Shown in pieces: positions 6,001 to 27,000 of a DNA stretch of 64,000 nucleotides (position 1 is its first letter; the number at the start of each line of letters is the position of its first letter). The DNA is from an uncultured Verrucomicrobiae bacterium (lineage in GTDB: Bacteria; Verrucomicrobiota; Verrucomicrobiia; Limisphaerales; Palsa-1400). Made by a program: the position numbers. Location of the stretch: contig CAVPOM010000005.1 of assembly GCA_963707025.1 (NCBI GenBank), positions 416,001 to 480,000 on the forward strand. The letters are read 5' to 3'.

Positions 6001-9000
6001 CCGTCAATGGTGGCCGAACCGCTCGTGCCGCCAAGTCCTTTAGGACCATTATAGACGGAATACAGATCGCTGGGGTAGGAAAACTTCCAGAGATTGCTGC
6101 CCGTCTCCGCGTCCAAACAATAAAGCGTGGCGGTGGCCTCGTTGTTGCCGCTGGCGTAAGCCCGCCCCTGCGCGACCGTGATAGAGGCATAGCCAACGCC
6201 CACGGAAGCTTTCCAAAGTGGTTTGGGTCCTTCCTCCGGCCATTTTACCAGCCATCCCGTCTCCGGCGAAATGCCGTTGTGATTGGGGCCGCGAAAGTTC
6301 GGCCAATCCGCGGCCCGCGCGGTGGCGCAAGACAGGCCGGCGGCCAAGGCCAGGGAAAAGATTTTGTTCATCAGGGAAGGCTGGCCATAACCAGGCGTGA
6401 TGTCAACCCGGCGCCACCATTCCGGCGGCCTGCGCCATCGGGAAGCAGGAAACTACTGGCGCGCCCGGCAGAACTCCCGCAAGACTTCGCCCTCGGCTCT
6501 GAGCCAGTCGGAAAGGGGAGCCTGTTGACCGCCACCGCCTTGCCGCCAAAGCTCGTAAGCGCGCCTCTCAATTTGTGTCTGCACCCGCAAGTGTTCTTCC
6601 ACGGTGAAAGGAGGACGGCCGCCTCCGCCCTCCGGCCTGCCAACGCTCTCCCGGCACTGTCTCCCGCCGCGGTGCGGAAGTCCGCGATTTTCGCCGACGT
6701 AAAGAAACCAACCCGGAGCAACCGGCCTGCCTTTGGCTTGAAAGAGCGCGCTCATATATTCCATTGGACAAACCGAACATTAACCGAGGATGAAAAAAAG
6801 ATTAAAATCTCCGCCGGCACAAACCGCCCCGACCTCCAGGCCTCCCGCATCATCGGCGGCCTCCGCGGCTGGTTCAGCCAAGGGTGGCCAGGCAGGACCC
6901 GCCCACTCCGTCCGCCAGTCGCCGGCGGAGGCGGCCGGGACGGTGGCGTTTTATAATAAATTGCTAAGGATCGTGGTTGGCATTTAATTTTTCAGATTTT
7001 CCTTGCATTCGCCAGCAGATTCCCTAATCTTCCCGCAGGTATGGGCAATGGAGTGAGTATGGCAGGCGACCGCAGGGCGGGTTGGGCTTCGGCGGGTTCA
7101 TCCGGATCGGGGGATTCGGACGCGCCAGGGAGGCGTTTAATCCACATCCCGGTAATTCACAGCCAGGCGGAGATGGGCAGCCTGAGTCCCACCATTCAAG
7201 CGATCACCGTGCAGAAGCTGGGGACCAAAGGCTGGGAGCGCAACCTCAGCTTGATTGACGGCATCTGGACGCAAATTGAGGAGGCGATTGGCCATTGGTC
7301 CCTGCCCTACGACAAAGTGCGCCTCTACCAGGATGGCTTGCCGGTGTGCGGGCGGGAACTGGAGATTGTCTCCGACTTGGCCAAGGCGGGCAGCCGCAAC
7401 CACCAACTGCTCCTGCGCTTGCAGAAACACGGCGCCACCCTGATGGGAACCGAATCGGCGGCCTGCTGGTGCAGGAGTATCATCTGATCAAACAAACGCT
7501 GGCGGCCAACGACCCGGCCCACGCGCCGCCCCGCCAGGCGCCCCACCCGGATGGCGGCCATTCCTTGCTCCAACGCCGCGACCAAGCCATCGCGCAACGG
7601 ATCAACCACACCCTGCGCCGGGGTGAAATCGGCCTGTTGTTTTTGGGAATGTTACATTCGTTGGAGGGCTGGCTGGCCCGGGATATCCAGGTTACCCATC
7701 CGCTTTATCCGCCGTCTTTGGGGGGACCTTGTCCATGACCAATGGAAAAAGCAAGGTTCTCGTGGTGGATGACGAGGAGGCGATCTGCCGGTTGATCTCC
7801 CACTTGTTGGAGCAGGAGGGCCTTGTCCCGCTGGTCGCGCTGGACGGAAAGACGGCCCTGCAACAACTGCGCAGCGCCGTGCCGGACACCATGATTGTGG
7901 ACCTGAAGCTGCCGGATTTGGACGGGCTGGAAATCCTGCGGCAGGCCAAAGCCCTGGATGCGGATCTGCCGGTGGTGATTCTGACCGCCCATGCCAAAGT
8001 CCACGGCGCGGTGGAGGCGATGCGGGCGGCCGCTTTCGATTATCTGGCCAAACCTTACGACCATCAGGAACTGCTCCGGGTCGTCCACCGCGCCCTGGCC
8101 CAACGGCAACTGAGCCTGAAGATCAAGCAACTCGCCGGCCAGACCTGCGCCAGCCATGATCTGACCGAAATCATGGGGCCGAGCGAAGCCATCGGCCGGC
8201 TGATTGCCGACCTGAACTGCGTCGCCAAATCCAACTTCAGCGTCGTCATCATCGGCGAAACCGGCTCCGGCAAGGAAGTCGTCGCCCAAGCCATTCATGG
8301 CAGCGGCCCCCGCGCCAAAGGCCCCTTTGTGCCAGTGGATACGGGCGCGATTCCGTACACCCTGTTTGAGGCGGAATTGTTCGGGCACGAAAAGGGGGCC
8401 TTCACCGGCGCCGCCGGCCGCAAGCCGGGCCGATTCGAGCAGGCCGGCGGCGGCACGCTCTTCCTGGACGAGATTTTGAACATGCCGCTGACCGCGCAGG
8501 CCAAAGTGCTGCGGGCGCTGCAAGAAAAATCCTTTTGCCGGGTCGGCGGCACCCAGCCGATCAAGATTGACGTGCGGGTGCTGGCGGCGGGCAACCAGGA
8601 TTTGGATGCGGCCGTGGCGGGGGGGCGCTTGCGGGCGGACTTGTTCTATCGGTTGAACGAGTTCACGCTGCGGATTCCGCCGCTCCGGGAGCGCAAGGAC
8701 GACCTGCTCTACCTGGCCAAACGCTTCCTGGATTTGACCGACCAGGAATTGAAAAAAACGGTGCTCGGATTTTCCGAGCCGGCCATGCAGGCCCTCCTCA
8801 ATTACCCGTGGCCGGGGAACGTCCGGCAACTGCGCTCCACCATCCGGCGGGCGGTGCTCCTGGCCGGCGAGGTGGTGACCGAGCAGCATTTGGATGTTCT
8901 TCAGGAGAACCATGAGCCGGGGCGGCCGGCCGCCCCGCCCGCCCAGGCGCAAGGCGCCCCCGCCGCCAAGCTTTCGCTCAAGGAAATCGTGGCGCAAAGC

Positions 9001-24000: not shown

Positions 24001-27000
24001 ATTTGTCCCGGCCTGGCGGCGCTGGAGATGGACGCCGCGGCCGAATTTCGCGCCCTGAAGCAACTTTACAGCCAGGAGTTGCAGTCCTTCCTCCGCTCCC
24101 TTTTGCCCGAAATGGACCTGGCCTATGACCGGCCGGCCATGGAACACATCGTGGACCTTTCGCCGCCGGGGCTGGACGAAGTCATGGCCCTGACCCGGGT
24201 AATGGACCTGTGCGATCAACACCAGTACCGCACCCTGGTGCTGGACTGCGCCCCCACCGGCCATCTCATCCGCCTGCTGGAAATGCCGGAATTGGTGGAC
24301 GGCTGGTTGAAGGCCTTTTTCGGCCTGTTCCTCAAATACAAACACATTTTTCGCCTGCCCAAAGTGTCGCAGCGGTTGGTGGACATCTCCAAAGCCCTCA
24401 AACGCCTGCGCGCGCTCCTGGCCGATCCGGCTCGGTGCGCTCTCTGCGCCGTGGCCATCCTTACCGACATGGCCTTTGCAGAAACCAAGGACCTGTTGGC
24501 GACCTGCCAGCGCCTGCGCGTCAGCCCGCCGGTGCTCTTCCTCAATCTGGCCACCCCGGCCGGCGGCTGCCCCTTGTGCTCCGCCCTGCGGCGCCGCGAG
24601 TCCATTATCCAACAAAAATTTCAGCGGGCCTTCCCCGCGGCGGCGCAAGTCCTGGTTTATCGGCGTGGCGAGCCTCGCGGTTTGGCGCGCCTTGGGGAAC
24701 TGGGCCAGGCGCTCTACGCCGCCCCGGCAACAATGGAGATGTGCCATGCGTGAATTATGCTCCCAGCCAACCCGGCACATTTCCTTGTGCCAAGCCCTGG
24801 ATCGCGTCCTCAACACCGGCGTCGTCGCGCTCGGCGAAGTGACCTTGTCGGTGGCCGACGTGGACCTGATTTACCTGGGGCTGCAACTGGTCCTCACTTC
24901 CGTCGAAAGCGGCCGGCCACCCGCTCCGATCCACCCCGGCCCGCAACCCGGCCCGAACTCGCGCGGCGGCCCGCGACTGGCGCCAACAGAGCCAATCCCA
25001 GCCGGCCCGGCAGCCAAGGAACCGCCCGGCGCCGCCACGCCGTTGCCGGCGGCGGGCCAGACCGGCGCGCTTCCTTCCGGCGGCCCTGGCGAAAAAACCT
25101 TACCCCATGCCGGCGCCGGCGCCGGCGCCGATTCCAACCGGGAAAAAAACGGGCTGGGGAAATTGGTCTTGACATTGATGAAAGTCCTGCACGAACTCCT
25201 CCAGCGTCAGGCCCTCCGGCGCATCGCCGGCGGCGCCCTCTCCCCGGCCCAGATCGAGCGCCTCGGCCTGACCCTCATGCGCCAGGCCCGGGAAATTGAG
25301 CGGCTGCGCCAGGATTTTGGCCTGGCGGAACAAGACCTCAACCTCGACCTCGGCCCGCTGGGCACACTGCTCTGACTGCCATGAACCCGCCACGGCACAT
25401 CGAACATTCCACCAGTGGCGCCACTCTGGCCGACCTGCTCGAACGCATCCTGGACAAAGGCATTGTCATCGCCGGCGACATCAAGGTCAAGATCGTGGAC
25501 ATCGAGTTGCTCACCATCCAGATTCGCCTGCTGGTCTGTTCCGTGGACAAGGCCAGGGAGATCGGCGTGGATTGGTGGGTCAATCATCCCGCTTTCAGCC
25601 CGCACCAGCCAGAGCGCCTGCCGGACTCCGTCCTCAAGCTCGAAGAGCGCCTGGCCCGCCTCGAGACGCGCCTGCCCGCCCCGACTCCAGCCGCCGCTCC
25701 CCACCCGCCCTGATCCTGGAGCCATTGTGCCAAGGCCGGATTTCACCCAGGGTGGATCGTCCCTCGCAACCCTGGGCTGCAGGATCCAATCCCGTTGGAA
25801 TTGGCAAAATCATTGCTGCCGCTCCAAACGTCGCTTGTCATTCCATTTATAATTCATCATTTATATTTATAATTTCCCCCGGCCATCCGCGGTTAAGGGC
25901 GGGCCATTGCCTTTCAACGGGTTGCGCCTCACCCCATCCCGCGCCCCTCCCGCCCACAATACTAAGGAATTTGAGTTGACATACAATAGTTTCTATAGTA
26001 CTTTTCCTCTGAAGGCCGCTTCCATCAACCTTCACAACTCAATTATGGAAAATTGGAGAACAGCAAAAAAAGGAGATCAAATCATGGCACGCAACGGAAA
26101 AATTGCCCGGCTCCCCCGGGAGATTCGCACCCGGCTCAACACCCGCCTGCTGGACGGTCACCAAGGCAAACAAATCGTCCAGTGGTTAAACTCATTGCCG
26201 GAGGTCAGGGAGGTGCTGGACCAAAAGTTCGAAGGCCGCGCCGTCAACGAGCAAAATCTTTCCGACTGGCGCCAGGGCGGCTACGAGGAGTGGCTGGCCC
26301 ACGAGGACATCCAGGCCCAGATGGTCGAACTGGACGCCGACCAGGAGGAACTCCGCCACACCGCCCGCGGTGAGGCGCTCACCAAGCATTTGGCCGCCGC
26401 CTTCGCCTTTTGCTATGCCGCCATCCTCGCCCGGCCCGGCCTGGAGTTGGTCGAAAAATCCCCCGGCCATCTGCGCGCCTTGCGTTCCATTGCCCTGGTC
26501 GTCGTCAAACTGCGCCGCGGCGAACAAAACGAGGCCCGCCTCAAAATCGAGAACGAGCGCTGGAATCTGGCCCGCAGCCAAATGGCTGAGGAAAAGGCCG
26601 AAACCCTCCAACGCAAGCAAATGGAGGCCCTTGCCGCCCCCATCTGGGCGGCCGTGAAAATGGGAAAACGGACGGTGGAATTCGGTGCCGGCAACGCCGC
26701 CAGGCTGGCGGCGGAAATGCTCCGGGAAATCGAAACCTGCCCCGACCCGGCCCATTTTCAGAGCAAAGTTCTGGCCCCGCGCTCGCCGGAAGAGTGGCTC
26801 CGCTTTTTTCAAGAATTGGCCAAAGACCCCCCGGCCATGCCCTCCCCGGTCCAGGCGGCGTTGGACACCCTCCATGAAATTGATGCCGGCCTTGGCTTTG
26901 AAACCAAAATCAGGCCCCCTTCATCCATGTCTAAGCCGGGCAGCCCTTCTCCAAAACCCGCCAAACGCCGCCCACGCCGGCGCTCGCCGGCGCCCCGCGC

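Follow-up and report, generated by a model that had tools for sequence, protein, structure and literature searches.

The gas-vesicle cluster of the window

The window, the whole stretch of 64,000 nucleotides that was analysed, carries a gas-vesicle (gvp) cluster of the Serratia type, broken by two unrelated genes at 16202-19516. Its genes and features, all on the plus strand, are as follows.

7041-7738 (+): GvpY-like gene, predicted TraB/Tiki/EreA-ChaN-like fold; split in this assembly by a one-base frameshift near 7445-7460
7735-9153 (+): GvrA-like NtrC/sigma-54 response regulator (receiver, Sigma54_activat, HTH_8)
9150-9671 (+): GvpH, an archaeal-type Hsp20 small heat-shock protein (NF041800, PF05455)
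9784-11934 (+): GvpZ, a Cdc48/p97/VAT-type double AAA+ ATPase of 716 aa (N, D1, D2; TIGR01243)
11931-12809 (+): GvpF/L, GvpF2 slot (PF06386, E 7e-43); start overlaps the Cdc48 stop
12814-14280 (+): GvrB-like PAS histidine kinase
14297-14833 (+): GvrC-like receiver protein
14690-14893 (+): gvpA upstream region, sigma-54-like site at 14826-14840; second copy before gvpN at 19902-20106
14919-15137 (+): GvpA shell protein (PF00741, E 1.5e-15)
15229-15678 (+): GvpC-like protein (no Pfam match), assigned from its position and from what relatives match
20136-21176 (+): GvpN AAA+ ATPase (TIGR02640, above cut-off)
21155-21490 (+): GvpV-like ORF, by position; kept in relatives
21515-22294 (+): GvpF/L, GvpF1 slot
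22307-22564 (+): GvpG
22561-24753 (+): double-domain ArsA/Get3-family ATPase in the slot of Serratia GvpW (PF02374, TIGR00345)
24746-25375 (+): fused GvpJ/A2-GvpK ORF (PF00741, PF05121)
25381-25713 (+): GvpJ/A3-like protein

The order gvrA-gvpH-[Cdc48]-gvpF-gvrB-gvrC, described in an earlier note on this DNA, is indeed present from 7735 to 14833, and the Cdc48 gene directly follows the Hsp20 gene as that note had stated. One GvpF/L gene comes after Cdc48 in the window, whereas two do so in Serratia. The regions before gvpA and gvpN are direct repeats (D3/D4) that are 83-85% identical. A similar sigma-54-like site lies at most 300 nt upstream of the gvpA ORF in 12 of 63 cases, against 2 of 1260 shuffles; a strict sigma-54 pattern scan stayed at chance level, as did promoter and terminator scans.

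Serratia GvpZ is a Cdc48 orthologue

The window protein had been called a full Cdc48/p97, and its domain content bears this out: it scores 865.1 bits against TIGR01243 (cut-off 802.65), the sole match above cut-off in the source genome, and combines a CDC48_N domain with two AAA domains (PF02359 at residues 10-93 and PF00004 in two stretches, plus PF02933 from precomputed domains). The identity to the archaeal enzyme, given earlier as 55% from Swiss-Prot, came out lower here, at 47-49% against five archaeal rows. Its best PDB match is archaeal VAT from Thermoplasma (5g4f, E 7e-209), which aligns over the full N-D1-D2 length, and the layout is common to archaeal Cdc48/VAT, eukaryotic p97/VCP/Cdc48 and GvpZ, often with an adjoining Hsp20 gene. 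The D1 pore loop is aromatic in both, K-F-Y-G in the window clade and K-Y-Y-G in VAT.

The ATPase motifs are intact in both GvpZ rings. Across 74 aligned rows, the Walker A Lys and the Walker B Asp-Glu are invariant in D1 and D2, and all 74 rows retain the D1 sensor Asn and arginine-finger motif. The D2 sensor Asn is found in 73, and the two arginines of the D2 R-P-G-R motif in 74 and 73 rows, respectively. The D1 pore loop reads K-F-Y-G in 73 of 74 rows, and the D2 pore loop is aromatic throughout (Y in 52, W in 17, F in 5).

The earlier note had placed this Cdc48 in the GvpZ slot without comparing the Serratia sequence itself, and that comparison has now been run. The protein of Serratia ATCC 39006 (WP_021013987; UniRef RepID M9WML1_SERS3) is a Cdc48, 64.1% identical to the window protein over 716 columns. 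It scores 877.7 bits against TIGR01243, above the cut-off, and falls with the window protein in one 10-row subclade (SH-aLRT 99). Every gvpZ-region primer peptide matches the ATCC 39006 Cdc48 (P0242), at the start, at positions 242, 451 and 458, and at the C-terminus; for gvpF2_5F and gvpZ_3R the peptide match is exact. On family profiles, mapping was not significant for these two primers (16 and 27 of 150 shuffles as high), for gvpG_3R (14 of 150) or for gvpZ_5F (131 of 300). A second metagenome match of a gvpZ primer (L193) lies outside any Cdc48 and was taken as chance. In the window, the GvpZ slot is taken by Cdc48; its orthologue is Serratia GvpZ, encoded in the gvrA-gvrC operon between gvpH and gvpF. 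As the note had cautioned, databases already carry the name: RefSeq and UniRef list the Serratia protein as 'CDC48 family AAA ATPase' or 'AAA family ATPase'. Because the family name was already in RefSeq, the advance is limited to tying the Cdc48 family to the gas-vesicle literature, which in the passages available to us still gives the role of GvpZ as unknown; it is not a new enzyme.

Trees were built with FastTree on 94 of 130 rows, and with IQ-TREE (LG+G4) on 46 of those plus P0242. The bacterial Cdc48 clade is separate from the 4-5 archaeal rows included; in neither tree does the outgroup form one side of a branch. The gvp-linked Cdc48s did not come out as strictly monophyletic, since well-supported branches of each tree require at least three label changes.

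Genomic linkage and neighbours of GvpZ

The tie to gvp genes reported for the closest homologs recurred in our own 80 loci: a core gvp gene lies within 4 kb in 72 (72 in the earlier count), and an Hsp20 gene within 1.5 kb of Cdc48 in 72 (earlier 71). Genome samples drawn evenly gave 46 Cdc48 loci, of which 19 have a core gvp gene at most 4 kb away and 27, some on short contigs, do not. In the even gammaproteobacterial sample, Cdc48 was found in 3 of 299 scored genomes and GvpN in 3 of 300; these are the same three genomes, each with Cdc48 inside the cluster. Two phylum or class samples likewise had all of their Cdc48s in gvp clusters (3/3 and 4/4). The linkage is kept despite reshuffled gene orders, and the 42 loci of at least 21 kb hold Hsp20 in 41 cases, GvpY in 35 and ArsA in 22. 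Non-gvp members make up 15 of the 74 rows of the wider clade, including three gvp-free loci with Hsp20 and full flanks. Hsp20-Cdc48 pairs free of gvp genes occur in bacteria (L023, L159, L160), and hsp20-cdc48 adjacency without gvp in 3 of the 5 haloarchaeal plasmid loci opened; thus, the pair can exist independently. The linkage of Cdc48 with gvp genes is real, yet not universal. The claim that Cdc48 is a standing member of bacterial gas-vesicle operons holds for Serratia-type and related clusters only; gvpZ is absent from the published gene lists of Anabaena, Microcystis, Bacillus megaterium, Streptomyces and haloarchaea.

The window Hsp20 matches the archaeal-type profile NF041800 at E 8e-34 and 117 bits, under the cut-off of 140, and the GvpH family PF05455 at E 1.5e-4; its best PDB chain is 4rzk. 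The same archaeal-type profile matches 40 of 40 aligned relatives. A complex prediction for the Cdc48 N domain and Hsp20 scored 0.78, with a control at 0.61, and was counted neither for nor against a pairing.

The ArsA ATPase of the window scores 333 bits against TIGR00345 (cut-off 135) and matches PF02374. The Serratia primer gvpK_5F maps to position 537 of this ATPase, with 0 of 150 shuffles as high, and on this one significantly mapped primer Serratia GvpW reads as a probable ArsA/Get3 ATPase. Double-domain ArsA and Hsp20 genes in gvp clusters were noted previously, with energising and chaperone roles proposed (PMC2963123); the main text of that paper, as available to us, does not mention cdc48 and does not tie the genes to the (later) Serratia names.

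For GvpY, the two window frames match a relative (L079) at 84% and 73%, and the Serratia primer gvpY_5R maps to the GvpY-like family (none of 300 shuffles scored as high). The protein is predicted to have a TraB/Tiki/ChaN-like fold: in a model with pLDDT 92.9, the fold search placed ChaN first (Z 9.5, rmsd 4.0, 162 aligned), followed by HopBA1 (Z 8.1), with EreC at Z 6.3. Foldseek also ranked ChaN first, with no match at E 0.001. The Pfam TraB profile matches the family weakly (15 of 38 members, best E 0.0012), searching PDB sequences with the GvpY profile yielded no matches, and an ESM Atlas search gave unnamed clusters only. Residues H13, D71, E111, R153 and H179 are invariant in 38 of 38 members, and may resemble the Tiki motif, a metal-binding His/Glu set.

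Possible roles of GvpZ

GvpZ belongs to one widespread type of bacterial gvp cluster, and an intact Cdc48-type unfoldase encoded next to a small heat-shock protein suggests, short of proof, that such bacteria have a clean-up kit of their own for sticky vesicle shell proteins. In the reading we favor, to which we give about an even chance, GvpZ is an active hexameric unfoldase of the Cdc48/p97 type that provides non-essential quality control for aggregation-prone shell proteins, and we infer that Hsp20 and Cdc48 form an unfoldase pair in gas-vesicle assembly or turnover. Judging from its family, GvpZ would thread polypeptide through a double ring via aromatic pore loops. From the gene context, Hsp20/GvpH could hold aggregation-prone shell proteins of the GvpA/J/M type, and GvpZ could extract these proteins, or shell that has misassembled or collapsed, to be re-used or passed to host proteases. 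GvpW, as an ArsA/Get3 ATPase, and GvpY, with its TraB/Tiki-like fold, may be additional parts of the kit, and GvpZ might be important in stress or turnover rather than in first vesicle formation. Haloarchaeal GvpH keeps GvpM from aggregating (PMC6107691), and GvpA2 aggregation is described as proteotoxic (PMC12848028), in the passages available from both papers. A broader version, which we consider unlikely, would unite gvpH, gvpW, gvpY and gvpZ in a self-contained machinery for organelle turnover, with Hsp20 as the holdase, a Get3-like protein chaperoning hydrophobic helices, a p97-type enzyme for extraction and a protease resembling Tiki; it would dismantle shells and recycle GvpA. If so, buoyancy could be lost, or collapsed vesicles cleared, by an active process, and a p97 would be at work on a bacterial organelle with neither ubiquitin nor a proteasome involved.

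Native Serratia deletions of gvpZ and gvpH keep gas vesicles and float normally, and Tashiro et al. suspect subtle roles for the 'non-essential' gvp genes. In E. coli, two deletion studies give opposite effects for gvpZ: according to the parts available, loss of gvpH, W, Y or Z weakened or abolished the ultrasound signal in one (PMC10344784), whereas the same single deletions, as well as gvrB and gvrC deletions, raised the yield in the other (preprint 10.1101/2024.10.30.621148). By its primers, the published ΔgvpZ removes residues 5-450 and leaves 270 residues with a complete D2 ATPase domain in frame. Because D2 survives in the reference deletion, whether gvpZ is truly 'non-essential' has to be re-examined with a clean deletion. 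This retention, the assignment of GvpW as a candidate ArsA/Get3 ATPase and the predicted GvpY fold are new here. The Serratia operon also serves as the acoustic reporter bARGSer, whose yield shifts in conflicting directions when gvpH, W, Y or Z is deleted, and naming GvpZ, GvpW and GvpY makes their roles directly testable in a tractable strain. A gas-vesicle role would also be a likely physiological job for some of the Cdc48s that occur sporadically in bacteria other than Actinobacteria, which have been placed with archaea in a study that nowhere mentions gas vesicles (PMC6017811).

The retained D2 domain raises the idea that GvpZ is a needed assembly motor whose requirement the published deletion masked, and the lost signal in one E. 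coli study agrees with this. We find it improbable: a fragment lacking N and D1 would be unlikely to work fully, clusters without gvpZ still make vesicles, yield was higher in the second E. coli study, and the primer tables, in the parts available, give no end points for the E. coli deletions. The absence of a native phenotype would also fit an Hsp20-Cdc48 pair captured beside gvp genes and co-induced with them, serving general proteostasis and not Gvp clients. The gvp-free pairs described above and the archaeal type of Hsp20 in all 40 relatives point the same way, as does the regulation of archaeal Hsp20 and CDC48 by common heat-shock regulators (PMC5852551, in the part available). However, Cdc48 remains in gvp clusters when Hsp20 is relocated or ArsA intervenes (L034, L092, L098-L100, L122, L123, L132), lay within gvp clusters throughout the two phylum or class samples, and has a stop that overlaps the gvpF start; we consider this alternative unlikely.

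Two other alternatives give GvpZ different partners. It could dismantle GvpF-GvpA chaperone complexes, or the co-transcribed GvrA/B/C, and so tune gvpA expression or subunit delivery. Serratia gvpZ has a regulator on one side and gvpF genes on the other, Cdc48 adjoins gvpF in most loci, and GvpF binds monomeric GvpA (PMC9501494); many loci nevertheless keep Cdc48 without an adjacent GvrA match (e.g. L025, L028, L034, L064, L069, L098-L100), and we regard such a role as quite unlikely. A role in delivering Gvp proteins to the 20S proteasome, like that of archaeal Cdc48 and actinobacterial Cpa, seems highly improbable. A 20S-beta-like gene does lie elsewhere in the source genome (G000:C12:114030), and Cpa needs no HbYX tail to bind 20S (PMC6017811), but PF00227 is unmatched in 2 of 5 other host genomes and also matches HslV-bearing controls such as E. 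coli. Unlike archaeal Cdc48/VAT, GvpZ is bacterial and sits within gas-vesicle clusters, and its rows lack the HbYX ending of 20S activators (archaeal Cdc48, PAN, Mpa): of the 88 gvp-linked rows whose C-terminus is complete, none has a penultimate Tyr, while the unlinked L172 ends GQYL. Cpa is likewise a bacterial double-AAA Cdc48 relative without HbYX; it forms a separate clade, co-occurs with 20S and has a partly degenerate D1 without the sensor Asn and arginine finger, both of which GvpZ keeps in 74 of 74 rows. This separation follows the published description of Cpa, our trees having no Cpa sequence. GvpN, also an AAA+ ATPase of gvp clusters, is a separate window gene of another family with one AAA domain, and is required for bicone-to-cylinder growth.

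Identity of Serratia GvpZ

The 716-residue Cdc48 of the window scores 865 bits on the CDC48 family model TIGR01243 (cut-off 803), which no other gene of its genome passes, and archaeal VAT is its best relative of solved structure. An earlier note had placed this protein in the GvpZ slot of the gas-vesicle operon. We scored deletion primers from Table S3 of PMC4982088 on a profile of 74 Cdc48 rows, with shuffled controls. Primer gvpZ_3F falls where D2 begins (profile position 451) and gvpH_3R within D1 (position 242); none of 150 shuffles equalled the score in either case. The genomic part of gvpZ_3F matches two metagenome stretches exactly, and in L194, a Serratia-ordered cluster, the exact match lies in a Cdc48 gene where D2 starts. 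A search with the L194 protein led to WP_021013987.1 (P0242), a protein that UniRef lists under Serratia sp. ATCC 39006. This 720-residue protein contains all of the primer peptides (start, 242, 451, 458 and end). Its identity to the window protein is 64.1%, and the two fall in one 10-row subclade (SH-aLRT 99). Serratia GvpZ is therefore a Cdc48: the placement in the GvpZ slot reflects a real observation, and the identification is secure. The note's caveat that databases may already call GvpZ a CDC48 ATPase was justified, as WP_021013987.1 carries the names 'CDC48 family AAA ATPase' and 'AAA family ATPase'.

The published gvpZ deletion was made by overlap PCR, which fused a 5' arm to a 3' arm (PMC4982088). 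Mapping the primers puts the start of the 3' arm at residue 451 and the reverse primer at the gene end, so residues 5-450 would have been removed; read from the primers, the deletion appears to retain 270 residues in frame, corresponding to the whole D2 domain.

The enzyme family of GvpZ is a known one, in a setting that the gas-vesicle papers examined have not named. Excerpts describe its role as unknown (PMC4982088, PMC5601083, PMC6617781) or the protein as bacteria-specific (PMC9501494), and the presence of ArsA and Hsp20 in gvp clusters was reported in 2010 (PMC2963123). The passages available from these five papers, from PMC10344784, PMC5852551, PMC12848028, PMC5944118, PMC6107691, PMC12739157, PMC11267810 and PMC6017811, and from two preprints (10.1101/2021.04.26.441537, 10.1101/2024.10.30.621148) do not name GvpZ as Cdc48, though the first Serratia papers may already give the annotation. 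Literature searches for gas vesicles with 'transitional endoplasmic reticulum ATPase', or with p97 and gvp, returned no match in the collection of papers searched.

Gene order, linkage and phylogeny

The gas-vesicle cluster of the window is arranged as follows.

Gas-vesicle cluster of the window
7735-9153, +, sigma-54 regulator
9150-9671, +, Hsp20/GvpH gene
9784-11934, +, Cdc48, 716 residues
after Cdc48, +, GvpF/L, PAS kinase, receiver protein, gvpA, gvpC-like gene
16202-17911, cluster-interrupting ORF unrelated to gas vesicles, 569 residues, no Pfam match
18083-19516, cluster-interrupting ORF unrelated to gas vesicles, 477 residues, faint DUF4034/TPR matches
after the two unrelated genes, +, gvpN, gvpV-like, gvpF, gvpG, double ArsA ATPase, gvpJ-K, gvpJ
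24746-25375, the gvpJ-K ORF listed above, with GvpJ/A2 and GvpK domains

The stop of the regulator overlaps the start of Hsp20, and the stop of Cdc48 overlaps the start of gvpF. The region upstream of gvpA (14690-14893), which holds a sigma-54-like site, is duplicated at 19902-20106 before gvpN, past the two inserted genes, as if expression of a split operon had been restored. GvpJ/A2 and GvpK are two ORFs in most relatives and one ORF in the two Methylosinus and Methylocella plasmid loci. Outside the cluster, a DNA adenine methyltransferase-like ORF of 865 residues lies at 2206-4803 on the minus strand.

Among the best 80 of 584 confirmed loci, a set that leans to close kin, a core gvp gene lies no more than 4 kb away in 72, the same count as in the earlier note, and Hsp20 no more than 1.5 kb away in 72, where the note had 71. 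Five of the eight loci lacking a core gvp gene end no more than 70 bases from the Cdc48 gene; the remaining three are one with only GvpY adjoining, one archaeal locus and L023, whose complete flanks hold Hsp20 without any gvp gene. The even sample for the class of a Chromatiaceae genome (centre genome excluded, G222 unscored for Cdc48) yielded Cdc48 in 3 of 299 scored genomes; GvpN turned up in 3 of 300, and these are the three that carry Cdc48. Among 400 genomes of the phylum to which the window belongs, four have Cdc48 and four have GvpN, with three genomes common to both; the two discordant genomes are fragmented, one having Cdc48 beside GvpF and ArsA and the other a contig that stops after Hsp20 and ArsA. 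Cdc48 is commoner in the phyla of an Anaerolineales genome (21/120; 6 of 23 loci gvp-linked) and a deltaproteobacterial genome (15/150; 6 of 16 loci). Combined, the even samples give 19 gvp-linked loci among 46, with kin not independent and some contigs short. Among alphaproteobacterial plasmid copies of Cdc48, three lack gvp neighbours and two others have them. The archaeal Hsp20 model matches the Hsp20 of 40/40 relatives, the window protein scoring below its cut-off, and hsp20 adjoins cdc48 in three of five haloarchaeal plasmid loci.

Complete-looking gvp clusters with Cdc48 occur in a record titled Parachlamydiaceae (L025) and in a single family from the phylum of the window (L098-L100, ordered Hsp20-single ArsA-Cdc48-GvpF). 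The unlinked Cdc48 genes L161-L167 have long open frames of ~880-910 codons, and five have a second AAA gene ~6 kb away in divergent orientation.

A FastTree phylogeny built on 94 of the 130 rows places every one of the 59 gvp-linked rows inside a 74-row bacterial group (support 94), along with 15 unlinked rows; the window protein lies in a 39-row subclade (support 100), 38 rows of which are gvp-linked. The outline agrees with an IQ-TREE analysis of 47 rows, in which the 39-row group has an SH-aLRT of 95. Both trees require at least three changes of the linkage label, so a single origin with losses is possible. The 4-5 archaeal rows are too thin to name a donor; sporadic non-actinobacterial Cdc48s have been placed among archaeal ones in a passage of PMC6017811.

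GvpW and GvpY

Primer gvpK_5F falls at position 537 of the ArsA profile (0/150 shuffles as high), and the window's GvpW slot holds a double ArsA/Get3 gene, so Serratia GvpW is probably a member of this family. The ArsA linker spans 110 residues in the window versus 28-42 in 21 relatives. A palindromic repeat lies in frame within it (23674-23768), with a further copy at 15932-16021; the repeat matches the genome 45 times, and 38 of these matches are 60 nt or longer.

Primer gvpY_5R maps to the family encoded upstream of the sigma-54 regulator (0/300 shuffles as high). In this family, His, Asp, Glu, Arg and His are invariant in 38/38 members, 15 of which weakly match TraB. The predicted structure is confident (pLDDT 92.9), and its best match among 48,161 chains is ChaN (Z 9.5, rmsd 4.0, 162 aligned), followed by other members of the same fold. 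A possible likeness to Tiki offers no more than a lead towards peptidase activity. The window's gvpY-like gene has a one-base frameshift at 7445-7460 relative to L079, a relative's locus, which may be an assembly error.

Candidate roles of GvpZ

The Cdc48 identity of GvpZ has testable consequences. The catalytic motifs are kept in both rings and the pore loops of D1 and D2 are aromatic, so GvpZ, by analogy with its family, should hydrolyse ATP and thread polypeptides like VAT. Because shell proteins are described as aggregating and toxic (PMC12848028), and haloarchaeal GvpH as keeping GvpM soluble (PMC6107691), we favour a reading in which GvpZ would be a quality-control unfoldase working with Hsp20 on shell proteins, and give it an even chance of being right. 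Against it, vesicles persist in native deletions (PMC4982088, PMC10344784) and many clusters are functional without gvpZ (PMC9501494), according to the excerpts. Two studies in E. coli disagree: in one, the signal was weakened or lost when gvpH, W, Y or Z was deleted (PMC10344784), and in passages of a later preprint these deletions, and those of gvrB/C, gave higher yield (10.1101/2024.10.30.621148).

That Cdc48, with Hsp20, forms a general stress module is in our view unlikely. We think it less probable still that GvpZ is a regulatory remodeller, and are more doubtful again of a hidden assembly motor. Least plausible, and very improbable, is a 20S activator: a penultimate Tyr occurs in 0/88 gvp-linked rows, which argues against standard 20S docking, although Cpa is described as docking to 20S without one (PMC6017811) and a 20S proteasome beta-like gene lies elsewhere in the genome (G000:C12:114030-114596). 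Separately, an unlinked bacterial Cdc48 (L172, G862:C83) ends in GQYL, the tail reported for the proteasome activators Mpa and Bpa in a passage of PMC6017811.
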